Source of the DNA: Pseudomonadota bacterium
GTDB lineage: Bacteria > Bdellovibrionota_C > UBA2361 > SZUA-149
DNA length: 64,000 bases
Assembly (NCBI GenBank): GCA_029555385.1
Contig: JAKPSH010000288.1
Span: 26,718-90,717 of the forward strand
Direction: 5' to 3'
Within the stretch, counting starts at the first letter, position 1. Every line of letters starts with the position of its first letter. The notes under the pieces are model-generated. The model ran no database searches. It was not told where the DNA came from and saw only the letters and a program-made list of their open reading frames with translations. This document shows, piece by piece, positions 13,007-49,252 of this stretch. The translations under genes and the position numbers were made by a program.

Positions 13007-13080
13007 TCGGGGTGAGAGGATTTGAACCTCCGGCCCTCGGTTCCCAAAACCGATGCGCTACCAGGCTGCGCTACACCCCG
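13007..13080 (-). tRNA. tRNA-Pro (anticodon UGG)
   Basis: Reverse complement 'CGGGGTGTAGCGCAGCCTGGTAGCGCATCGGTTTTGGGAACCGAGGGCCGGAGGTTCAAATCCTCTCACCCCGA': 7-bp acceptor stem, D-arm GCGC/GCGC, anticodon loop TT-TGG-GA, T-loop GGTTCAAAT; CCA not encoded. Confidence 0.85.
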
Positions 13081-13969: not shown

Positions 13970-14563
13970 ATGAGAAATCAATTTAATTATGTTGTTCCGT
14001 CTATTCTCGTTTTGTGGGTAGTGCTCGCGCTCATAGCCAGACCCGCAGCAGCCGAAGATTCTTATCAATGGACAGATCGCCAAGGCCGCGTGTTCTACGG
14101 CAGCAATCCGCCGAAAAACGCGCTGTCCGTAACCAAACTTCCGCCCAAAGCATTGTCGCGCTATTCATCAGACAGAATGCTCAGCCGGTTGGGCTGGAAG
14201 GGCCAAAAAACAAACAGCAAGACGCAGCCCGCCGAAAAGAAACCTATCACGCCGGCACGCCCGGCGGCGTTAGAGGCCGAAGAAGCAAGGGTTGAGCTTG
14301 ATGAGCAAGGGCAAGTCAAATCCTGCGTAGCCGCTGTGCGCAACAACGGAGAAAGCAGCGCCGTCGAAATTAATATCGCTTTCGATTTTCCGGACGGCAC
14401 CCTTGTGCCCGGAGTAGGGCCGAATTCTATTTCGCCTAACTCGTCGGCAGACTACGCGGTGCCGAACGAACTGCTGCCACTCCAGGTAAAAGCCGAAGAG
14501 TCCGCTGACGGCGCCAAGACAGCGCCCAAGCCGCGGGTTATTGTTCACGGCATCGGCCAGTAG
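13970..14563 (+). CDS. Secreted DUF4124-domain protein
   Basis: Signal peptide then 'YQWTDRQGRVFYGSNPP' matching the DUF4124 'W.D..G..hYsd.PP' pattern; 3' end overlaps the convergent glycosyltransferase gene by 19 nt. Confidence 0.6.
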   Translation: MRNQFNYVVPSILVLWVVLALIARPAAAEDSYQWTDRQGRVFYGSNPPKNALSVTKLPPKALSRYSSDRMLSRLGWKGQKTNSKTQPAEKKPITPARPAALEAEEARVELDEQGQVKSCVAAVRNNGESSAVEINIAFDFPDGTLVPGVGPNSISPNSSADYAVPNELLPLQVKAEESADGAKTAPKPRVIVHGIGQ

Positions 14564-16320
14564 CGAATCAGCGCAAAGTATCGTTCAGGCAAATCTGTCA
14601 TTCTTCCGCCCGCAGTAATAATCTGCACCGCCGCGCTCCAAGGAGGCTCCGGTAAAGCTTCAACCCACGCCCGCCGCACAAGGTAATATCCGGGCTGCGC
14701 AAGGCCGGCCTCGGGTTCTTGAAAACGCAGCGGGCCCGGATAATAAAAGAAAAAGCCATCGAGAGTTTCGTCCTCCGCATCCCGCAGCACGTGAAGGGTT
14801 TCCGCGCCTCCCAGCACCGCGTAAACCTCTTCCGCAAACTTTTGATAACTATGCGTGAAATTCTTTGCGCCGACACCGGGCAAAAGCAGCAACTGATATA
14901 GACCGGCAAGAAAGCAAACGAACCCGCAAAGCAACGCAAAATAAGAACGCTTACTGAACGCTTTGCGCCAGGAAACGGTAAAACCAGCCGCAAAAAGAAA
15001 AAAACAAAACGAAAAGCAGCCGAAGTTGGACACAACCAGCGCCGCGAAACTGCGCAAAAAAACATTGAGCCGGTAATTGTCACTTAAATCCGGGAAATAT
15101 GCGCCGCAAAGAACCACCGCTGCAAAAATCAGCGCCAGCGCCGCTGCTGAAGCATAACCGGACGCACGCAAGAAACATGAAAACAAGATATGCTCCCCCT
15201 TCCCGCCGCCTGCCGCGTGCTGCGCCAAGCGCGGCAGAACCGCAGCACAGATCAGACCGAGTGCCGGGAGCACCGGAAGAAGGTAAACCGCTCTCTTCCC
15301 GGAAGCCATGCTCAAGAACACGATTACCGACACGATCCAGATTAAAGCACCATTAAAGACGAACTTTTCCCCAGGCGCCTGCGGCAAGAATCGAGCGAGC
15401 TTCTTCCGCCTGGCCGGACAAAGATGCGACAGCAAGAGCAGTCCGGCGCAAAGAGGCAAGAAGACAGACCACGGCGCAAACTGGTCCCAGAAGACCACAG
15501 CGTAGTGATAAAACGGCTTTGCCGGAATTCCCGCACCTCCCGTGAAGCGGCGAAGATTTTCGAAAACGATCTGCCGCGCGAGAAACTTCGTGCCGCCTTC
15601 GAACGCAGCCAGCACATACCACGGGAGACTGATGGCCAGCGGCCAGAACCACCCAATACGTAAAATGCTTTGCAGTCCGCTATATCCGCCGCCTAAAAAA
15701 TAGGACACGGAGCCAACCACAAGCAGCGGGAGCATTACACCCAGCGGACCCTTAGTCAGCATCGCCAAGCCGCACAGCACGCCCATTACATGGTAGACAG
15801 CATCCGGCAATTCCGCCAGGCTGGAACCGCGTGATTTAAGCTGCCCGGCAGCCACAAGCCAGATCAGCACAGGCAGGACGGTCAGCAGGCAAAAGAGCAT
15901 GTCGACCCGGCCCGCGGCAGCGAGGTTAAGGAAGCCGAAACTTAAAAGAACGGCAAGAGCAGCAGTCCCGCCAGCACATACACCGCCGGATGTGGCTGCC
16001 GCCCACGCGGTTGCGGCGACGGTTCCCGCCGCCGCCAGTGCGGACGGCAGGCGCAGCGTAAACTCATCAAAATGTTCAAACACTTGGGAAATTCCGGCAG
16101 CCAGCCAGTGAAAGAGTGGAGGTTTAGAGGGAATTACTTGGCCATTTCGCAAAGGCAGCACAAACTCGCCGGAGCGTAAAATCTCTTGCACGACCGACCC
16201 TTCACGCGCCTCGCACACGCTTGACACCGGAGACATGAAAAGGTGCGGCACAATAAACAAGATGGTGACAACCGCCGCCGCAAGCGAGATACCGTAAACT
16301 TTTAGCTGCGGCCGGGACAC
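14545..16320 (-). CDS. ArnT/PMT-family (GT83/GT39) undecaprenyl-phosphate-sugar glycosyltransferase
   Basis: More than 10 TM segments; N-terminal 'FVLPLRNGQVIPSKPPLFHWLAAG' loop typical of ArnT-like enzymes. Confidence 0.7.
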   Translation of the reverse strand: MSRPQLKVYGISLAAAVVTILFIVPHLFMSPVSSVCEAREGSVVQEILRSGEFVLPLRNGQVIPSKPPLFHWLAAGISQVFEHFDEFTLRLPSALAAAGTVAATAWAAATSGGVCAGGTAALAVLLSFGFLNLAAAGRVDMLFCLLTVLPVLIWLVAAGQLKSRGSSLAELPDAVYHVMGVLCGLAMLTKGPLGVMLPLLVVGSVSYFLGGGYSGLQSILRIGWFWPLAISLPWYVLAAFEGGTKFLARQIVFENLRRFTGGAGIPAKPFYHYAVVFWDQFAPWSVFLPLCAGLLLLSHLCPARRKKLARFLPQAPGEKFVFNGALIWIVSVIVFLSMASGKRAVYLLPVLPALGLICAAVLPRLAQHAAGGGKGEHILFSCFLRASGYASAAALALIFAAVVLCGAYFPDLSDNYRLNVFLRSFAALVVSNFGCFSFCFFLFAAGFTVSWRKAFSKRSYFALLCGFVCFLAGLYQLLLLPGVGAKNFTHSYQKFAEEVYAVLGGAETLHVLRDAEDETLDGFFFYYPGPLRFQEPEAGLAQPGYYLVRRAWVEALPEPPWSAAVQIITAGGRMTDLPERYFALIRYWPMP

Positions 16321-21755: not shown

Positions 21756-22052
21756 TCATTGATTATTCCTTGTGCCGATGGACAGCCATTGCACCACTTG
21801 ATTCAACATCGCCTGTTCGCTTGCGAGCTGGGTATTCTGCTCCGGATCGCTCTCTGTCGCCGCAACCAGTTCCTCATATTTGCGCTCGATTCCAGATGCC
21901 AGTTTCGGCAAGTCAGTCAACTCGCCGAGTTTAGGCAGAAGCACGGCAAGGGGCACAACGGAAAGGCGTTCTTTGCTCCTGAGCGGATCTGGCGCGGTGT
22001 CATCACCATCTTGATCAAGGCCGTCCGGCCTGCCTTTCCTATTCCACCACAT
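21756..22052 (-). CDS. Hypothetical acidic protein (98 aa) immediately downstream of truncated flhB
   Basis: ORF only; no FlhB C-domain motifs (no NPTH). Confidence 0.35.
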   Translation of the reverse strand: MWWNRKGRPDGLDQDGDDTAPDPLRSKERLSVVPLAVLLPKLGELTDLPKLASGIERKYEELVAATESDPEQNTQLASEQAMLNQVVQWLSIGTRNNQ

Positions 22053-22061
22053 GACCCATCC

Positions 22062-22940
22062 CTATCTTAGTTTCGATTTCGCCCCCGGCGGCGCTTCTCC
22101 GCGCTCCCGGTGCGCGCTTTTCATTTCCGGGGCTTGGTCGGTCTCCCGGTATTCGGCCTCCAGCTCGGCCCGGCTCATCCGGTGTTCCTGCCGGAAGGCA
22201 AGCCATACCGCAACATAACCGCACACACCGGCAAAGAGGGAGAAAAACAGCGCAGTCTGCCAAACTGACATGAATAAACCTTTCGCCCAATCAAGTCTCG
22301 CACTTAGACTTAAGGCTGTCAAAAACTCTGTATTATCGGACAGCGCCGTGGAGACGACACCATTTCCCGGAGCGTTTCCGCCATCCAGCATCACGGAGCG
22401 TCCCACACCGGCTGCCGGCATTTTCGCAGGAAGAACGGTATACAGCAAAACGCAAGACGCTGCGGCCCAGACAGCGACAACCACGGCACCCGCACCGGCA
22501 GCGAGCAGGCGTTTTCTTGCACCATCCCAGATCCAGCCGCCGGATTTGAAGAAACGCGCCATACCCGGCTGAAAAAGCGCAAAGGAAAACAAGAATTTCG
22601 TCTGTAATGCACCAAGCAACAGCACTATCGCAAAAAACGGCACGACAAACGATAAAACTGTTTTGGCCAAAGCCCGGCTAATTTGCGCAGCACTCAGCGC
22701 TAAAGCCTTTGAGGCTGGTTCGTTTCGCAACCATTCGCTGCCGGATGAAGCGCTCCAAGCATCCCGGGCTAAAGCGGCAATGCTGGCTGCCGCCACAGGC
22801 AAACTGACTATGGCTCCCACAAGCGCGCCCAGCACCACGGCAAAACACATCACCGCTTTGCTGTACGGAACAGTCCCCGAACTGCGCAGCCGCTCTAATT
22901 TAAGCGCCGTAGGCGGAAACCTTTTCATTTCCTCAGCCAT
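22062..22940 (-). CDS. flhB: FlhB/SctU-family export-gate protein, membrane domain only (C-terminal cytoplasmic NPTH domain absent)
   Basis: N-term 'MAEEMKRFPPTALKLERLRSSGTVPYSKAV' matches the FlhB 'EKTE.PT.KKL...R..G.V..SKE' start; 4 TM segments; ends at '...EMKSAHRERGEAPPGAKSKLR*' where the FlhB linker begins; no NPTH in any frame downstream. Confidence 0.65.
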   Translation of the reverse strand: MAEEMKRFPPTALKLERLRSSGTVPYSKAVMCFAVVLGALVGAIVSLPVAAASIAALARDAWSASSGSEWLRNEPASKALALSAAQISRALAKTVLSFVVPFFAIVLLLGALQTKFLFSFALFQPGMARFFKSGGWIWDGARKRLLAAGAGAVVVAVWAAASCVLLYTVLPAKMPAAGVGRSVMLDGGNAPGNGVVSTALSDNTEFLTALSLSARLDWAKGLFMSVWQTALFFSLFAGVCGYVAVWLAFRQEHRMSRAELEAEYRETDQAPEMKSAHRERGEAPPGAKSKLR

Positions 22941-22962
22941 AATCAATTCCCAAGCGAGATAA

Positions 22963-23856
22963 TCATTGCGGCTCCTCGCCCGTGGACGGATGCACATCCG
23001 CAGGCTTCGGCGCCGGAGCCGTCTGAACTTTCATTTGCGCAAGCACGCTGCCCGCGCGTTTCGGCATCAAGGACTCCGAAATGAGCTGTGACAAATCGCC
23101 AGCAATTGAATAAAGACAGAGAGCCAAAACAATCAGCACACACACTGAGCGCACCGCCGCCGCGATATCTGCCTGAAATGCCTGCGCCAAATATCTCTTC
23201 CATGGCAGGTGCACAAAATCAATAATCAGGGCCGCGGCAAACATGGGCAGCGCAAAAACGAAAGCAACGGCCAGAGCCGCTTTGGCGCCGTGCGCGATCA
23301 GCTCCGCCACCTGCGGCGTCACGGCAAATTGCACATAACCCGCCATGCTTTCCAGATACGGAAAAGCAAATAAAGATCGTCCAAAAAATGCCCATAAGAA
23401 AGGAAAATCCGGACTGGCGCAAAGCAGAGCCGCAACGAGCAAAAGCACAACCGTCTCCACCGGCGGCGCGCTTTGTTCCGGAAGTGCCCGGTTCGAGTGT
23501 TTTGCAAAGGTCACTGCGCTGAGCCAGCGGGCAAAAGTCTGGGCAGCATAGCCGGCAAAACCCGCGGCAACCGCGAGAACTAAACCAATTCCGGCCTCAA
23601 CAATCAGCACGCCAGCCCGCGGCATTACTGGCGCCGTTGCGGAGACACGTCCCGCCTCAATCGCCAGTAAAACATCGAACAGCGATAAATCCCGCAAAGC
23701 AGGCACATAGGGGATAAAGAAAACGGTAAAACCAACAGCCAGAACAAAACGCACACTGAGCGGCACTACCCGCCACGGAAGGATACTTAAAGCGCAGAAA
23801 AACACGGAGATGCGCACAGTTAAAGCGACCAGGCAGAGCACGGCAAACGAAGTCAC
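22963..23856 (-). CDS. fliR: Flagellar/T3SS export-gate protein FliR/SctT
   Basis: Six or more TM helices, position between fliQ and flhB, about 297 aa with extended C-tail. Confidence 0.7.
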   Translation of the reverse strand: MTSFAVLCLVALTVRISVFFCALSILPWRVVPLSVRFVLAVGFTVFFIPYVPALRDLSLFDVLLAIEAGRVSATAPVMPRAGVLIVEAGIGLVLAVAAGFAGYAAQTFARWLSAVTFAKHSNRALPEQSAPPVETVVLLLVAALLCASPDFPFLWAFFGRSLFAFPYLESMAGYVQFAVTPQVAELIAHGAKAALAVAFVFALPMFAAALIIDFVHLPWKRYLAQAFQADIAAAVRSVCVLIVLALCLYSIAGDLSQLISESLMPKRAGSVLAQMKVQTAPAPKPADVHPSTGEEPQ

Positions 23857-23877
23857 AAAACAGCTTCCCTCTCTCCC

Positions 23878-24132
23878 TTATTGATAGAGCGAAAGATTGC
23901 CCCACGCACTTGCTGTAAAAGCGAACAACTCTGAGAAAAAACGCCCGAGTGCAAAATACCCCACGAGAAACAGCCCGGCCAGTTTTCCCGTAAAACTAAT
24001 GACCTGGTCGTCGATTTGCGCAGTTACACGCAGCACCGCCGCAACAAGCGCACCGCAAATTACCGCTAAAAGCACCGGAACACTAAGGTGCACTGTGAAG
24101 AGCAGCGCGTTGATTATTTGCGTTGTATCCAT
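23878..24132 (-). CDS. fliQ: Flagellar/T3SS export-gate protein FliQ/SctS
   Basis: 84-aa two-helix hairpin membrane protein 'MDTTQIINALLFTVHLSVPVLLAVICGALVAAVLRVTAQIDDQ' typical of FliQ. Confidence 0.75.
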   Translation of the reverse strand: MDTTQIINALLFTVHLSVPVLLAVICGALVAAVLRVTAQIDDQVISFTGKLAGLFLVGYFALGRFFSELFAFTASAWGNLSLYQ

Positions 24133-42610: not shown

Positions 42611-43473
42611 GGCACAATTTGAGACGGGGAAGTAATCACGATATCAGACCCGCCGCGCTCTTTAATTTGCGGAATCAGCAGCGGCAGCGCTTCGCGCAGC
42701 ACCGCAGCTTTCACGGCATAACCGGCATCACCATGCAGCGGAGAGATCGTATGTTCTCTCATGCATGGAATTACCTCCAGCAGCCTCTCCAGGTCACTGC
42801 CCGATACATTGACTTCCAGCATGACACGCTTCCGGGCTTCCAGCACGGAGCGGACAACTAAAACAAAGCGGTCAATTACCGGCCGTTTCTGCGTGTCGCT
42901 CATTGCTTTTGGACTGGCATAAAGCCGGGTTGAAGACGGCATCAGCTCTTCGACAACATCCAGATTGTTCGCCTTCAGCGTCGAGCCGGATGCGGTATTG
43001 TCAACAATGCAGTCGGCATCTTCCGGCGGAAATACTTCAGTCGCACCATATGAACGCACAAACGTCGCCTGGAGTTTACGGCTTAAAATCCATTGTCTGG
43101 TCATTTGTTCGTATTCAGACGCGATAATCAATTGGCGATCGGGATTCGCGCCGCCGCTAAATAATCCGGCGGGCGCGGCCGCAACTACGGACACGGGGTC
43201 AAGCCCGGTATCGAGAAGCTCGATTACCTCCACACCGAGCTCCCGCACCCAGTCGGCACCGGCAAATCCCAAGTCCCGGGAGCCAATGGCCAGCATCTCG
43301 ACAATATTCTGCGGTTTCAGCATTTTTACGGAAAAACCCGGCAAAGAAACGAGCGGGCGATATGCACGGCTTCCCGCATGGATGCGTATTCCCGCTTCAT
43401 CGAGAAGTTTAAGCACGCCGGACTCCATTCTTCCTTTCGGAAGGGCTAGTTTAATCAATGCTTCTTTTTCCAA
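42607..43473 (-). CDS. hisG: ATP phosphoribosyltransferase (long form)
   Basis: 'LIKLALPKGRMESGVLKLL', 288 aa with C-terminal regulatory domain; first gene of the minus-strand his operon. Confidence 0.85.
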   Translation of the reverse strand: MEKEALIKLALPKGRMESGVLKLLDEAGIRIHAGSRAYRPLVSLPGFSVKMLKPQNIVEMLAIGSRDLGFAGADWVRELGVEVIELLDTGLDPVSVVAAAPAGLFSGGANPDRQLIIASEYEQMTRQWILSRKLQATFVRSYGATEVFPPEDADCIVDNTASGSTLKANNLDVVEELMPSSTRLYASPKAMSDTQKRPVIDRFVLVVRSVLEARKRVMLEVNVSGSDLERLLEVIPCMREHTISPLHGDAGYAVKAAVLREALPLLIPQIKERGGSDIVITSPSQIVP

Positions 43474-43838
43474 AAGTCACCTCACATCCGGATGGAATAT
43501 ATTATAGCCGGCTGCGGCCAGCCTCTGGCCGCGCAGGCTTTCTGTGGCGTAAAATTAGAGAATTTCGGCTGCGACCCGAATACTCTTACCAAATAACAAA
43601 AATTTAGAAACGGAAGTTAGTTAATTTTGGCGGTGCGGCCGCCGTGAGGATGACCGCCATGCTGAGAAACGGGAGAAGAAATATAGCAAGATTGCATGTT
43701 TTCCATGCGGGATCTATCACATAAGACACGTTTGCTGTCAATATTGCACAAAAGAGAAGCGCAATCTTTCACTGTTCCTGACGGTAAGTTTCGTTTATTC
43801 TGGCGCTGATATGATTAATTCTATTCAATGCATCGGCA

Positions 43839-45788
43839 ATGAATAATTCTCTCGATTCAGAATTGCCTTTTGCCGCCGGTACTTTAATTGATAATAGATA
43901 TGAGATCGTCGGCGAGTTGAGCAAAGGCGACCAAGGCACCGTATACGAGGTGCGCGATCAAGCGCTGAACAACGAAACTATCGCGCTCAAAGTGCTGTAT
44001 CCGCATTTAATTGCCGATGCAGCTTTGCTCGCCCGTCTCGGGCATGAGCTGCAATTCGCCCGCCGCCTCGGCCACCCAAATATTGTTTCCGTTTTTGATG
44101 CCGGCGTGGCGGACGATCGCTTCCCCTACGTTACGATGGAGCTTTTCCACGGGGAAAGTCTTGCCGAGCGCCTCCGGCAAGGCCCTCTGCCGCTTGAGGA
44201 TATCCTCCATATTCTTGTGCAGGTCTGTCACGGACTTTCCGCGGCGCACCAGATGGGCATCGTTCATCGCGATTTGCGCCCCGCGCACATCTTGCTGGAC
44301 AGTGAAGACAACGTAAAAATAGGAGGATTTTATCTTGCCCGGCGTTTCCCATTGGAGGCTGGCCTCGATGGCGAGGATTGGATAAAGCAAATACACGCGG
44401 AGTACTATAAGGCACCTGAACAATTTCAATCCGCAATAGTTGATCCGCGCGTAGATATTTATGCTCTAGGCATTATCGCGTTTGAGATGCTCTCCGGTGA
44501 AAAACCCTTTGTCTCTACAGATTCCGTCAGACTTGCGGAAATGCATTTCTCAGAACCGCTGCCTAAGCTTGCGCCGCTGCGCCATGATGTCCCGCCCTGG
44601 CTGGAGAAGCTGGTCCAAAAATGCGCCAACAAGAATCCCGATCAACGCTGCCCGGGCGCAGACGCAGTCTTATCCGTCCTCTATGAAAACGCGCCGGAGT
44701 TCTTTTCGGAAGCAACGCAGCTTAGTAATTTTGTGCTCGCCCGTTCTGTTTCGCCTCCGGTTCCTTTTTTATCACACTTTGCCTGGCTGAGCCGGTTTCT
44801 TGCTTTGGCCGTTCTTTGCGGCATCGTTTTCTTGGCGGTGCGCACCGCGTGGTACCAGTCGGTACCCATGGAAGAAAAACATGTGGCGGTCGAGGAAGAG
44901 CCTCCTCTTCTGGAACCAAAATCAGCCGGGTCCCCTTCACCGAACCTCGCAGATCAAGACGGCATTACGCCGCTGATGTGGGCAAGCGAAAAAGGGGACA
45001 TCGATATGCTCAGTGTCTTGCTGGTTCAAGGCGTCAAGCTTGATGAACAGGACAATAAAGGCTGGACTGCTTTAATCTATGCTGCCGGACAAGGACAGCT
45101 TACAACAGCAGAAAAACTCCTGGCCTCAGGCGCCGCGGTTGATGCACGCGATAAAAACGGCGCTGCCGCGCTGCATCATGCAGCAGCACGCGGCGCGTTA
45201 GATGTTGCTTCATTGCTCCTCAAACACGGAGCCGATATTAACGCTGTCGATAACGATGGGCAGACGGCGCTGATTTATGCCGTTAAGCGCCACAATCCGG
45301 CCCTAATTACCTTGCTGCTCGACAACAAAGCGAGGCTGGACATCTACGACAAGGACGCGCGCAGCGTGTTTTTCTACGCCGATAAAGACGAGCTGCGGCA
45401 GTTGAGCAACCGGGCAGTTGCCAAATCAGACCCTGAAAGCAAAGTCAAAAGAGTTGGACTCCCCACAACGCCAAATCAACCGCAGTTGAATTACCCAAAG
45501 CGAACGCGGCTGCGCGCTGGAGTTCCGCGAGGAGTCTGGGAAGAACGAGGTCCTGCCGGTGCGGTACTTCTCTCGTGCAAAGTCGAAGTGTTGAATGCCG
45601 GTGAAACAGATGCGCACGATGTCAAAGTCTCGGTTGTCACCCCGCTTGGACAAATCGTTGATTTACCGGGACCGGAAACATTGCCCAAGAATTCCCGGGC
45701 CGAATATTCAAACGAAAACATCGAAGTATTCGCACCAACCAAAGGCAGACTCTCTGTCCGATCCGATTGCGCCAACTGCCGCAAGTGA
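43839..45788 (+). CDS. Ser/Thr-kinase-like protein (probable pseudokinase) - TM helix - ankyrin-repeat domain
   Basis: Kinase fold with 'IALK', 'HRDLRPAHILLD' (Lys->Arg, Asn->His), 'IGGF' in place of DFG, 'YKAPEQF'; TM 'FAWLSRFLALAVLCGIVFLAV'; at least 4 ankyrin repeats ('DGITPLMWASEKGDIDMLSVLLVQGVKLD...'). Confidence 0.8.
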   Translation: MNNSLDSELPFAAGTLIDNRYEIVGELSKGDQGTVYEVRDQALNNETIALKVLYPHLIADAALLARLGHELQFARRLGHPNIVSVFDAGVADDRFPYVTMELFHGESLAERLRQGPLPLEDILHILVQVCHGLSAAHQMGIVHRDLRPAHILLDSEDNVKIGGFYLARRFPLEAGLDGEDWIKQIHAEYYKAPEQFQSAIVDPRVDIYALGIIAFEMLSGEKPFVSTDSVRLAEMHFSEPLPKLAPLRHDVPPWLEKLVQKCANKNPDQRCPGADAVLSVLYENAPEFFSEATQLSNFVLARSVSPPVPFLSHFAWLSRFLALAVLCGIVFLAVRTAWYQSVPMEEKHVAVEEEPPLLEPKSAGSPSPNLADQDGITPLMWASEKGDIDMLSVLLVQGVKLDEQDNKGWTALIYAAGQGQLTTAEKLLASGAAVDARDKNGAAALHHAAARGALDVASLLLKHGADINAVDNDGQTALIYAVKRHNPALITLLLDNKARLDIYDKDARSVFFYADKDELRQLSNRAVAKSDPESKVKRVGLPTTPNQPQLNYPKRTRLRAGVPRGVWEERGPAGAVLLSCKVEVLNAGETDAHDVKVSVVTPLGQIVDLPGPETLPKNSRAEYSNENIEVFAPTKGRLSVRSDCANCRK

Positions 45789-45935
45789 TCGCTTACTGCA
45801 CTCAGCGCGAAAACCAGCTGCAATTACAGCGGCTTAGCGCGCCAGCACACGACTGCTGTATTCTTTTCTGTCTCTGAGGTATTTAATGTATTTATAATAA
45901 TCCTCCGGCGAGCACAGCGTTCATGCGGAACAAGT

Positions 45936-46973
45936 ATGGGAAATAAATTTTCGGCCCTTCAAACACAAATCTTCTCAACACAGGCATTAAATGAAATCCA
46001 AGAAGCCCTGCATGAGCTGCATGAGGAATCAAAAGATTTAGGGTTCGGCCCGGATATCACACAGCACGTCAATCAGAGACTCTTGAACAAGGATGGCTCT
46101 TTTAATGTGCGCCGCGAAGGATACAACTTGTTTCGATCGCGCAGCATTTATCACGCACTGCTTAACTCAAAGTGGCAGCATTTTTTTGCTATTATCTTTT
46201 GCGCTTATATTGTGATCAACTTTTTTTTTGCTGCTTTGTTTTTTGCTCTTGGGCCAGAAGCTCTAGCCGGATCTGACGCGACGGGCTTGGCGCTTTTTTT
46301 TGATTGTTTCTTTTTCAGCGTCCAAACTTTTTCGACGGTCGGTTACGAAAAATTGCATCCGATAAGTTTGACGGCGAATTTCTTGGTTACACTCCAGTCA
46401 TTGGTCGGACTGCTTGGTTTTGCCCTGGCGACTGGATTGCTTTTTACCCGCTTTTCCCGGCCAAGCTCAAAAGTAATCTTCAGCAAGTTTGCGCTTATTG
46501 CACCGCAGCAAGACGGACTTGCCTTTGAATTCCGCGCAGTCAACGCAAGACCGAACATGCTGCTGCACTTGGAAGCTCGTGTAGTAATGAGCCGGCTGGA
46601 ACGGCAAGGCGGCTGCGTGCGGCGCAAGTTCTACGATTTAGAGCTCGAACGCCGGCAAATTATGTTCTTTCCGCTGCACTGGACGATCGTCCACCCGATT
46701 GATCAAGACAGTCCCCTGTGCGGAGCAACCAGGGAAGAACTTGCCCAATCCGATGCAGAATTCCTGGTCATGCTCAGCGGCATGGACGATACTTTTTGGC
46801 AGACAGTCTACACATGGACCTCTTATAAGCACAACGAGATCGTTTGGGGCGGCGCGTTTGACAACATTTTAGAGACATGTCCGGACGGCAGCGTTAAGAT
46901 AAACTTGGACCGTGTGCATGAATTCCACCGCGTAGAAATCGCTCCGGCGCTCAAAGCAGCCAATAGCTCATGA
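45936..46973 (+). CDS. Inward-rectifier-type (KirBac-like) potassium channel with atypical filter TVGYE
   Basis: N-term 'RLLNKDGSFNVRREGYNLFRSRSIYHALLNSKWQHFF', pore 'FFFSVQTFSTVGYEKLHP', cytoplasmic Ig-like C-domain; codon usage markedly AT-richer than neighbours. Confidence 0.8.
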   Translation: MGNKFSALQTQIFSTQALNEIQEALHELHEESKDLGFGPDITQHVNQRLLNKDGSFNVRREGYNLFRSRSIYHALLNSKWQHFFAIIFCAYIVINFFFAALFFALGPEALAGSDATGLALFFDCFFFSVQTFSTVGYEKLHPISLTANFLVTLQSLVGLLGFALATGLLFTRFSRPSSKVIFSKFALIAPQQDGLAFEFRAVNARPNMLLHLEARVVMSRLERQGGCVRRKFYDLELERRQIMFFPLHWTIVHPIDQDSPLCGATREELAQSDAEFLVMLSGMDDTFWQTVYTWTSYKHNEIVWGGAFDNILETCPDGSVKINLDRVHEFHRVEIAPALKAANSS

Positions 46974-47057
46974 GCAGCAAAAGGACTCTTGCCGCCGTAG
47001 AGTTTTTCGGGGAAAGGAGCGTGAAACGTGCAGAAGGACGCTTAATAGCCGGTAAAT

Positions 47058-48140
47058 ATGGCGCAGCAATCAATCGTTGATTTATTTTACGCCGCAAACA
47101 AGCTGCACGCGCAGTATGAGCAGAAATACGGCCGCAAAATGGTTGCGCCGGAACAGGAAAATTCCTCGCGCGTCCTTGAATTCGTCGATACACAGAATCG
47201 AAAAGTATCGGTTCTGCTGGAATTGCGGGGAGACCGCCATGCCTTGGTGCTGCTCGCGGAAATGGTACAAAAGCTGGATCGTGTGCCGCCCCGGCAAATA
47301 TTGTTTATCGTTGAAGGACTCGGGCGTCAGGGCATTGAACAGCCGCGCTACAGTCCGCAGTATCTAGCCGAGGAAATCGCCCAGCGCTATAAGATTGCGC
47401 TGACCGGCGGCATAAAGACCGTTGCCGATTGGGATGTCATCACTGAAGTAATAGCCGAGTGCGCGGTACAGCGTCCACCGGTACCGCGCAAACGGGTAAT
47501 CGGTGCGCTCTTGCTTTCGGAATCGCTGAAGAGCTGGCGGCGCAGCAAGCAGAACATTCTTGAAGCAATCGAAACCCTTGCCTCTTGTTGGAATACACCG
47601 GAGCAGCGCGTCGTAAGCATCAGCGAACTTTATGCGGCAAGCGAAAGGTTCACACAGCTCGAAGCTGAACAAAAAAAACAAATCAACGCGCTGATGGCGG
47701 CGGCCGCGAAAAAGAATGCTGGTAGACTGGACCTGGAAAACTGGCTGGTGGTGACAGAAATCATTGATGACGCTGTGCGTAAAGGGCTTGCACGGGATCT
47801 GGTCTTAGGCTCGGCCGTGAACACAATGGCTCCAGTTGATGCAGGAGGATATCCGGACTTCGTTCATGCGATGAACACGGCTATGCAAACTTGGGGCGAA
47901 GGCGTAGGCCGCGAAGAACTACATAAGTGCCTGATTTCCGCGCAAGCAGATCGCCGTAAATCTCCGGACAGCTTTATGGCGACAACGCAAAAGATCGGTC
48001 AAATTTTTACAGTTGTCCAAACCGAACTCACGGCAATCAATATTCAGCGAGCTCTTCAGGAAAACAATCGCGCACGCAACGTGCTCGTTGTGGCCAGTCT
48101 GATACATGAAAAGGTAATTCGTTCCGCTTTCGGGTATTGA
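47058..48140 (+). CDS. Hypothetical soluble protein (360 aa)
   Basis: Clean ORF downstream of the channel gene; no recognisable motif. Confidence 0.5.
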   Translation: MAQQSIVDLFYAANKLHAQYEQKYGRKMVAPEQENSSRVLEFVDTQNRKVSVLLELRGDRHALVLLAEMVQKLDRVPPRQILFIVEGLGRQGIEQPRYSPQYLAEEIAQRYKIALTGGIKTVADWDVITEVIAECAVQRPPVPRKRVIGALLLSESLKSWRRSKQNILEAIETLASCWNTPEQRVVSISELYAASERFTQLEAEQKKQINALMAAAAKKNAGRLDLENWLVVTEIIDDAVRKGLARDLVLGSAVNTMAPVDAGGYPDFVHAMNTAMQTWGEGVGREELHKCLISAQADRRKSPDSFMATTQKIGQIFTVVQTELTAINIQRALQENNRARNVLVVASLIHEKVIRSAFGY

Positions 48141-48409
48141 TTGCGCCTGCCGGAATGCCTTTCGGAAAAAATCCGCAATTACCCTTTGGTGTTGCAAATA
48201 TTTGGGCGGGAACCGTGCACGGTATAGAAATACGATCCGAACAGCCCCACTTTTTCTTGAGGCATAGCCGCAATGGGGCTATGCGGCACTCTCATGAGTT
48301 TATGGGTTCAATGACAAGCCATTGATTCATTCCCGCAAAGCTGTTTGAATGGGCATGCCTCTGGCACCGTTTCCGACTTATTTCGTCTCTAAATTTAGGT
48401 AATTCTGAA

Positions 48410-49252
48410 GTGGCTTGGTTTTCAAGGAAAAAAGCGCCTAAACCTTCGGCGGATGACAGCGCTAAGCTCGAAATCCCCGGTGGGTTGTGGACCAAATGCA
48501 CTGGCTGCAGCGAGATTGTTTATACGCGGGAGCTGGCGAGAAATTTGATGGTATGCCCGAAATGCAGCTATCACTTTTATCTGCCGGTTGATCAGCGCAT
48601 TGAGTTGCTCTGCGATCGCCATTCTTTCGAAGAATTCGACGCCGCTCTAAAAACCGCTGACCCGCTTAAGTTCAAGCGCTACTGGGATAAGCTTAAAGAA
48701 TACGAGAAGCGGACAGGAAGACCGGACGCCGTCCGTACAGGACGTGCACGAATTGATGGAAAAGTAATAATGCTGGGCCTGCTCAATTTTGCCTTTATGG
48801 GCGGCAGTATGGGCATTGTTGTCGGCGATAAGCTCGCGCGCCTGATCGAAGCAGCGGCCCAGGAAAGAGTCCCCGTGATCATCGTCTCTTCTTCAGGTGG
48901 AGCCCGCATGCAGGAGGGGCTGTACTCCCTGATGCAAATGGCGAAAGTGGTCGCCGCACTGCAAAAGTTGTCTGAGCTTAAGCTGCCCTACATCTCAGTC
49001 ATGACCCATCCGACAACGGGCGGTGTTGCGGCGTCGTTTGCCATGCTCGGTGACATCAATGTTGCGGAGCCCGGCGCATTGATTGGGTTTGCCGGGCCGC
49101 GCGTGATTGAACAAACAATCCGCAGCAAACTCCCGGAAGGCTTTCAACGCGCTGAGTTTTTGCTCGAGCACGGAATGGTGGACCTGATCGTTGAACGGAA
49201 AAATATGAAGACCTGTCTGTCGCAAATGGTCGACCTCTTGGTCCGCCACTGA
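48410..49252 (+). CDS. accD: Acetyl-CoA carboxylase carboxyltransferase beta subunit
   Basis: Zn-ribbon 'CTGCSEIVYTRELARNLMVCPKCSYH', 'FMGGSMGIVVGDKLARLIE'. Confidence 0.9.
   Translation: MAWFSRKKAPKPSADDSAKLEIPGGLWTKCTGCSEIVYTRELARNLMVCPKCSYHFYLPVDQRIELLCDRHSFEEFDAALKTADPLKFKRYWDKLKEYEKRTGRPDAVRTGRARIDGKVIMLGLLNFAFMGGSMGIVVGDKLARLIEAAAQERVPVIIVSSSGGARMQEGLYSLMQMAKVVAALQKLSELKLPYISVMTHPTTGGVAASFAMLGDINVAEPGALIGFAGPRVIEQTIRSKLPEGFQRAEFLLEHGMVDLIVERKNMKTCLSQMVDLLVRH

Follow-up and report, generated by a model that had tools for sequence, protein, structure and literature searches.

A candidate pseudokinase receptor with an ankyrin and Ig-like ectodomain in an Oligoflexia (Bdellovibrionota) lineage

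Introduction

What becomes of a receptor-type Ser/Thr kinase whose metal-binding residues have been replaced? The question is raised by a single gene in a stretch of 64,000 nucleotides (contig JAKPSH010000288.1 of assembly GCA_029555385.1, positions 26,718 to 90,717; hereafter the window) from a metagenome-assembled genome (MAG) of the Oligoflexia. A preliminary description of the window, made from its sequence, had recognised in the gene product a membrane-spanning kinase-like protein with degenerate catalytic motifs and ankyrin repeats, encoded next to a channel gene, and had proposed a pseudokinase or an atypical catalytic mechanism. The comparisons reported here favour, with moderate confidence, a lineage-specific pseudokinase receptor descended from canonical receptor Ser/Thr kinases as the best explanation of the sequence, and the competing explanations are weighed against it below.

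Results

Catalytic motifs of the kinase-like domain

The N-terminal domain of the protein clearly belongs to the Hanks-type, or eukaryotic-like (ePK), kinases. The Pfam profile PF00069 (Pkinase) matches residues 21-272 with an E-value of 2.5e-39 and 135.7 bits against a gathering cutoff of 31.7, covering positions 1-253 of the 263 in the profile and thereby the whole domain, the solved structures of PknB, StkP and PknA match it at E ~1e-38, and the domain is confidently predicted in a full-length AlphaFold2 model built from the family alignment (predicted local distance difference test, pLDDT, ~85-94). The motifs were aligned to the solved Staphylococcus aureus PknB (4eqm) and to seven family homologs; one of the alignments also included a Mycobacterium tuberculosis PknB sequence, and the motif comparison was repeated against solved chains. 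The Hanks-type fold with its IALK, HRD and APE motifs, as the preliminary description had it, is borne out by these alignments, and so are the substitutions that an alignment to PknB kinases had been proposed to confirm.

Three of the canonical Ser/Thr kinase residues are retained, namely the VAIK lysine (Lys51), the αC glutamate (Glu70) and the HRD aspartate (Asp145), whereas both Mg2+ ligands are lost. First, the catalytic loop HRDLRPAH(IL) aligns with HRDIKPQNIL, the family and canonical form being HRD[LI]KPxNIL, which places Arg147 at the position of the catalytic-loop lysine and His150 at that of the metal-binding asparagine, as had been read from the sequence before. Next, VKIGGFYLAR aligns with LKIFDFGIAK, hence the counterpart of DFG is G163-F164-Y165; the metal-binding aspartate has indeed been replaced by a glycine, Gly163, but the earlier reading of the motif as GGF was one residue out of register. 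Finally, several changes had been missing from the earlier list of substitutions. The glycine-rich loop departs from the family pattern at Ser28, Asp31 and Gln32, the DFG glycine is replaced by Tyr165, the P+1 loop reads A-E in place of the canonical G-T, and not one Ser or Thr is found in the activation segment (G163 to E194), where acidic residues occupy the stretch where the homologs carry TxTG...GTP.

Such a combination did not occur in a background set of bacterial kinases. This set comprised 89 catalytic loops, drawn from 80 kinase loci in metagenomes and compiled with a search pattern that permitted [KR] and [NH] at the two catalytic-loop positions; all 89 read K...N and keep the DFG aspartate, and none has R or H. 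The 80 background kinases are ordinary kinases from a scan of metagenome contigs with generic kinase motif patterns, and the sole long match of that scan (L026) is not a member of the family described below. According to a published definition, a bacterial Ser/Thr pseudokinase is a kinase homolog that has lost any of the VAIK lysine, the HRD aspartate and the DFG aspartate (bioRxiv 10.1101/2025.01.12.632604), and the protein counts as one by this sequence definition because its DFG aspartate is replaced by Gly163.

A family of canonical homologs

A search of 5.8 billion clusters returned two full-length relatives, P0003 and P0004, and the partial P0005 at ~30-35% identity, and a phmmer search with the full-length protein against a library of 1.84 billion representatives, whose best 150 matches were dominated by giant ankyrin proteins, added P0259, P0270, P0280 and P0232. 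The homologs are ~32-35% identical to the query, the six full-length ones over 99-100% of its length. In each of these six, a kinase domain and a transmembrane (TM) helix are followed by a post-TM segment that is conserved among them, by 5-7 ankyrin repeats and by a domain that ends in CxNC, and the partial P0005 likewise has the kinase-TM-ANK layout. The C-terminal domain has ten invariant columns across the family, including T, N, G, A, P, G-P and the C-x-N-C close to the C-terminus, and the query carries the corresponding family motif TRLR...N.G...A...GP...CxNC and terminates in C-A-N-C-R-K (CxNC at 45768-45779). Both this domain and the collinear full-length architecture assign the query to the family, which is small, uncharacterised and unnamed, and is referred to here as kinase-TM-ANKn-Ig(CxNC).

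Within the family the query stands apart: the domain order is common to it and the six full-length relatives, but it is shorter and degenerate. The seven homologs without exception show the canonical motifs GxGGMG, ALK, HRD[LI]KP[DE]NIL, DFGLAR and GTPxYM[AS]PEQ, and the query alone lacks the canonical catalytic motifs as well as the post-TM segment (LLKTE..TG); 1-3 of the ankyrin repeats found in the homologs are also missing from it. No relative between ~38% and 100% identity was present among the 5.8 billion clusters or the best 150 matches from the 1.84-billion library, and the degenerate form therefore represents a singleton lineage. A search with an alignment of the C-terminal domain yielded 596 candidates, none of them at E <= 1e-3, and a scan of the contigs of GTDB representative genomes with the query gave only one Patescibacteria kinase, of no relevance here.

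Distribution of the divergence

The query departs from 24 of the 87 kinase-domain positions that are invariant in all seven homologs and keeps the other 63, structural anchors included. The altered residues cluster in the glycine-rich loop, the αC helix, where the family FARFRNEV has become LARLGHEL, the hinge, the catalytic loop, the DFG motif and the activation and P+1 segment. In a leave-one-out comparison, based on kinase positions invariant in four other family members, the query deviates at 28-34% of the positions and the homologs at 3-17%, while the corresponding values for the ankyrin repeats and C-terminal domain taken together are 12-18% and 11-21%. Mean identities follow the same pattern: in the kinase domain the query is 40.4% identical to the homologs, which are 53.8% identical to one another, whereas the respective values are 34.5% versus 32.4% in the ankyrin region and 34.2% versus 31.4% in the C-terminal domain. 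Judged from these sequence comparisons, the excess divergence of the query is confined to the kinase domain and the ectodomain is normal for the family.

Domain organisation and topology

The coordinates of the gene, its domains and motifs, and of two further genes discussed below are collected in Table 1. The hydropathy profile contains one hydrophobic segment, which confirms the single TM helix of the preliminary description, and the acidic linker that follows it (residues 339-368) is disordered in the model. Several Pfam Ank families match residues ~370-503 with E-values of 1e-28 to 1e-16, and the model shows four ankyrin helix pairs with capping helices at 378-529, followed by a second linker. 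Four or more repeats had been counted previously, which agrees with the four full repeats and caps; the all-beta Ig-like domain of ~95 residues at the C-terminus had been overlooked. The latter is without an above-threshold Pfam match to CARDB or DUF11-type profiles.

Table 1 Features of the kinase-ANK gene and of two other genes in the window.
Feature	Position	Strand	Basis or state
Whole open reading frame, 649 residues (kinase-like domain, TM helix, four ANK repeats, Ig-like domain)	43839..45788	+	Intact, ATG to TGA
Hanks-type (ePK) kinase-like domain, residues 14-285, predicted cytoplasmic	43878..44693	+	Pfam, solved-structure matches, model
Degenerate Gly-rich loop L-S-K-G-D-Q-G-T-V (family L-G-x-G-G-M-G-x-V)	43917..43943	+	First Gly replaced by Ser28
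IALK, β3 Lys51 kept	43980..43991	+	Invariant alignment column
αC Glu70 kept	44046-44048	+	Invariant alignment column
Catalytic loop HRDLRPAH; Asp145 kept, Lys to Arg147, metal-binding Asn to His150	44265..44288	+	Alignments
G162-G163-F164-Y165, equivalent to x-D-F-G; metal-binding Asp to Gly163, DFG Gly to Tyr165	44322..44333	+	Alignments
Activation segment GFYLARRFPLEAGLDGEDWIKQIHAEYYKAPE, residues 163-194	44325..44420	+	APE kept
Sole TM helix, residues 314-338	44778..44852	+	Hydropathy, Kyte-Doolittle (KD) maximum 2.26; model helix 310-339
Four full ankyrin repeats (369-500) and capping helices (to ~529), predicted periplasmic	44943..45425	+	Pfam, 33-residue register, model
C-terminal Ig-like (CARDB-like) beta-sandwich, residues 555-649	45501..45785	+	All-beta in model
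KirBac-like channel gene, selectivity filter TVGYE	45936..46973	+	KirBac3.1 match, E 2.8e-60
197-residue protein with paralogous Ig-like domain copy (residues 115-166)	13970..14563	+	tblastn; hhalign probability 95%, E 4.1e-8

The kinase-like domain should be cytoplasmic and the ankyrin and Ig-like region periplasmic, since the protein has one TM helix and no N-terminal signal sequence, and ATP is required by a kinase fold. On its C-terminal side the TM helix is flanked by acidic sequence, with three acidic residues and one basic residue among the first 15. The genome encodes at least two copies of the Ig-like domain type, and because the second copy sits in a 197-residue protein whose N-terminus looks by inspection like a signal peptide and which is predicted to be secreted, the domain type is probably extracytoplasmic. 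In the periplasm the two cysteines of the C-terminal CxNC could pair in a disulfide. The earlier proposal of a transmembrane scaffold or signalling protein also agrees with the single TM helix and the ankyrin region.

Comparison with known kinases and pseudokinases

The PknB/Stk1/StkP receptor kinases (PDB 4eqm, 1mru, 9ruj), which match the query better in sequence than any other solved structures, resemble it in having a cytoplasmic N-terminal ePK domain, one TM helix and an extracytoplasmic sensor. In contrast to them, the query has no PASTA domains, its ectodomain being composed of four ankyrin repeats followed by an Ig-like domain, and it lacks the Mg2+ ligands, the catalytic-loop lysine and the activation-loop threonines. 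Against the PknB_PASTA model (NF033483) it scores 226 bits, below the cutoff of 450, through the kinase domain only, and neither NCBIfam nor Pfam gives a PASTA match. The similarity to anti-phage kinases is likewise limited to the kinase domain, with scores far below the cutoffs for MADS6 (162 versus 460) and BREX PglW (65 versus 990).

The seven bacterial pseudokinase families described so far (ActPs1-3, GLW, CP1, DYD and DLHK) share with the query a Hanks-type fold in which the catalytic motifs are degraded. Substitution of the VAIK lysine occurs in all seven of them, in every member of five families, in 60% of DYD and in 34% of CP1, and CP1 lacks a TM region and forms a fusion with COG3899, whereas the query has a TM helix and an ankyrin and Ig-like ectodomain and no COG3899 domain. 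When compared by the described motif patterns, the query falls outside all seven families, as it keeps both the VAIK lysine and the HRD aspartate and contains a TM helix. A pairing of ankyrin repeats with a degenerate kinase domain, as in the query, is also seen in integrin-linked kinase (ILK) and in Arabidopsis ILK1. The ankyrin repeats of ILK are N-terminal, cytosolic and on the same side as the kinase domain, and other motifs have been lost from it than from the query.

An association of ankyrin repeats with bacterial Ser/Thr kinases has been noted (PMC11032199). The main text of the bacterial kinase atlas (10.1101/2025.01.12.632604) makes no mention of ankyrin, and no description of the kinase-TM-ANK-Ig architecture was found.

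Discussion

A receptor that probably signals without catalysis

The framing of the protein as a pseudokinase or a kinase of atypical mechanism was apt, given the loss of the DFG aspartate and of the catalytic-loop asparagine and lysine, and given the precedent of the human CASK. Of these alternatives we favour the first, in which the protein would be a bitopic inner-membrane receptor of the Oligoflexia with a cytoplasmic kinase-like domain, one TM helix, and four ankyrin repeats and an Ig-like domain in the periplasm. In this lineage alone, both Mg2+ ligands, the catalytic-loop lysine, the first glycine of the glycine-rich loop, the DFG glycine and the Ser and Thr residues of the activation segment would have been lost, and the fold-defining and ATP-anchoring residues Lys51, Glu70 and Asp145 and the APE motif retained. 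The ectodomain, being under normal family constraint, would presumably have kept the capacity to bind its ligand in the periplasm. Non-catalytic signalling would then fall to the cytoplasmic domain, acting by docking or allostery, for example by pairing with or sequestering an active Hanks kinase or its substrates, and the acidic activation loop may stand in for phosphorylation. We infer both a loss of catalysis and the scaffold or allosteric mode, the former from the substituted motifs. Many nucleotide-binding pseudokinases keep the kinase fold and the Lys-Glu pair (PMC4718504).

Several observations weigh against this explanation. Lys51, Glu70 and Asp145 are kept, which a pure scaffold would not need, and CASK, devoid of the same two metal ligands, is active without cations. 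No other Hanks kinase was detected by tblastn in the 64-kb window, and neither a partner kinase nor a substrate has been identified. Tajima's relative-rate test, for which the distant PknB served as the outgroup, gives 31 versus 21 (p = 0.17) and 35 versus 22 (p = 0.085), which is a trend only. The query could also be the deepest branch of the family by its sequence, and this might stay hidden as the ankyrin identities near 30% may be saturated. Moreover, the searches returned no closer relatives by which selection for the degenerate state could be shown.

A possible active kinase of the CASK type

The protein might instead be an atypical active kinase that, like CASK, performs a slow, cation-free phosphate transfer by means of Lys51, Glu70 and Asp145, with His150 or Arg147 possibly compensating for the lost metal ligands. 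We consider this unlikely, though it is the most serious competitor to the pseudokinase receptor. Human CASK (PDB 3c0g) has lost the very same two positions, its HRDVKPHC and LGGFG corresponding to HRDLRPAH and IGGFY of the query with the DFG aspartate likewise turned into glycine, and it phosphorylates neurexin without Mg2+ (PMC4718504). Both proteins keep the VAIK lysine, the αC glutamate and the HRD aspartate, and the query retains the APE motif as well. On the other hand, the best predictor of residual activity is an intact glycine-rich loop together with the VAIK motif (PMC4718504), and the glycine-rich loop of the query is degraded. CASK, a eukaryotic cytosolic MAGUK scaffold, has this loop intact along with the catalytic-loop lysine, the DFG glycine and the P+1 GT, all of which the query has lost in addition, and the activation segment of the query offers no Ser or Thr for autophosphorylation. 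The resemblance to CASK is convergent, with no homology beyond the ePK fold.

Possible decay of the gene

Alternatively, the gene could have lost its function, with the kinase domain drifting and the substitutions carrying no functional meaning, which appears somewhat less probable still. The singleton lineage, the missing post-TM segment and ankyrin repeats, and the broken, strain-variable signature motif of the neighbouring Kir gene would all be in keeping with decay. However, the reading frame of 649 codons is intact and near-identical across samples, the ectodomain retains the family-invariant residues as well as that of any homolog, and the 63 invariant kinase residues that are kept include the structural anchors, in a domain that models confidently; together, the intact frame, the conserved ectodomain and the retained kinase residues make simple decay less likely than the pseudokinase receptor. 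The changes are, furthermore, not evenly spread but concentrated in the elements for catalysis and activation and in the αC helix.

The Kir-like neighbour

The kinase-ANK gene does lie just upstream of a Kir-type channel gene, as the preliminary description had stated, with both genes on the same strand and a gap of 147 nt between them, and this adjacency is kept in every assembly of the population that spans the junction, namely the Logan assembly of SRR29761469 (L004) and the NCBI contig L009. It may thus be asked if the pseudokinase domain docks on the cytoplasmic domain of the channel as its regulatory partner, loosely like the plant ILK1, an ankyrin-repeat protein that is described as a pseudokinase regulator of cation fluxes (PMC9403797). 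Apart from the adjacency, such a partnership could be seen in the non-canonical signature motifs of both proteins, yet we regard it as very improbable. A Kir gene is absent from all five homolog loci, as is a kinase-ANK gene from the two loci of the nearest Kir homologs, by which a conserved co-occurrence with the channel gene, proposed earlier as a check, is rejected. The ankyrin repeats are predicted to lie across the membrane from the regulatory domain of the channel, and the Kir allele is mosaic in an otherwise identical background, which suggests that the two genes apparently evolve independently. A functional link between kinase and channel is thus far unsupported.

The mosaic structure is seen in L009, which has no mismatches to the window over 45234-46126, a stretch that runs from the 3′ part of the kinase gene across the gap into the 5′ part of the Kir gene, followed by 82 mismatches (7.9%) in the rest of the Kir gene and 8 in the next spacer, after which the sequences are near-identical again as far as they were compared (to 47164). 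The differing Kir codons comprise 49 synonymous and 24 non-synonymous ones, and the pattern suggests that either the Kir allele is recombinant or the assembly chimeric. The selectivity filter itself reads T-V-G-Y-E (codons ~46335-46349) as opposed to the usual T-[IV]-G-Y-G, and among 119 Kir homologs scanned, 114 carry GYG and 2 GFG, with 5 outside the search pattern. Near-identical Kir alleles differ at the filter, which is TVGSQ in the JGI contig L010 (99.8% nucleotide identity) and TVGYG in L009. Directly downstream of the Kir gene, an open reading frame of 360 residues (47058-48140, plus strand) is without a Pfam or NCBIfam match and occupies the same position in L004, L009 and L010.

In the homolog loci a different neighbour recurs: a TadE-like gene (PF07811, Flp-pilus pseudopilin-type) is found directly downstream of the canonical kinase-ANK gene in two of five (2947-3495 in L003 and 8124-8633 in L007), a possible hint to the function of the family; no search for a TadE-like gene was made in the window.

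Integrity of the sequence and its surroundings

That the motif codons reflect an error of sequencing or assembly, named earlier as what would overturn the description, has a negligible probability, as the window, L004 and the partial protein HQH28484.1 from another Oligoflexia MAG do not differ anywhere in residues 1-274, which rules out sequencing error as the source of the degenerate motifs, as frameshifts are absent, and as there are 24 separate substitutions at family-invariant kinase positions rather than one or two altered codons. L004 differs from the window by 3 single-nucleotide polymorphisms over 5382 nt, only one of them within the gene, a T/C difference at 44979 that changes Trp381 in the first ankyrin repeat to Arg (W381R), and L009, as a fourth assembly, matches the window exactly in the final 555 nt of the gene.

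The names that cluster members carry assign the contig to an Oligoflexia bacterium of the phylum Bdellovibrionota. The surroundings consist of ordinary chromosomal genes of a diderm bacterium, with hisG/H/F and hisA-IE upstream on the other strand and accD, lptD and dTDP-sugar genes downstream, and the GC content is uniform. Predicted promoters and terminators over 43300-48500 are no more numerous than expected from shuffled sequence and give no indication of the operon structure. An Rfam scan of the whole window matched only a tRNA at 13007-13080. The AT skew is high at 14001-16000 (0.318) and 22001-24000 (0.261), most other 2-kb bins being at or below 0.13; the former bin overlaps a minus-strand open reading frame (14545..16320) for a polytopic membrane protein of 591 residues.

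Implications

Bolder versions of the story, in which the protein is either a bacterial counterpart of CASK, that is, a cation-free receptor kinase, or a pseudokinase that the adjacent Kir-like channel has taken on as its regulatory subunit, are a long shot, although, if true, either would represent an undescribed way for bacteria to signal across or at the membrane. The scope of the finding is the sequence of one MAG lineage with a genomic context that is not conserved, and its interest, which is modest to moderate, is that of a natural experiment. No account was found of Hanks kinases that use, as the family is predicted to, a periplasmic ectodomain of ankyrin repeats and an Ig-like domain as their sensor. 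Bacterial pseudokinases have barely been studied experimentally, and in every described family at least some members, if not all, have lost the ATP-anchoring lysine. The query, in which a recent loss in a single lineage would have affected the metal-binding and activation elements only, provides together with its canonical relatives a natural comparison set, which could show what role a receptor kinase assumes after catalysis is lost, and whether cation-free chemistry of the CASK type exists in bacteria.

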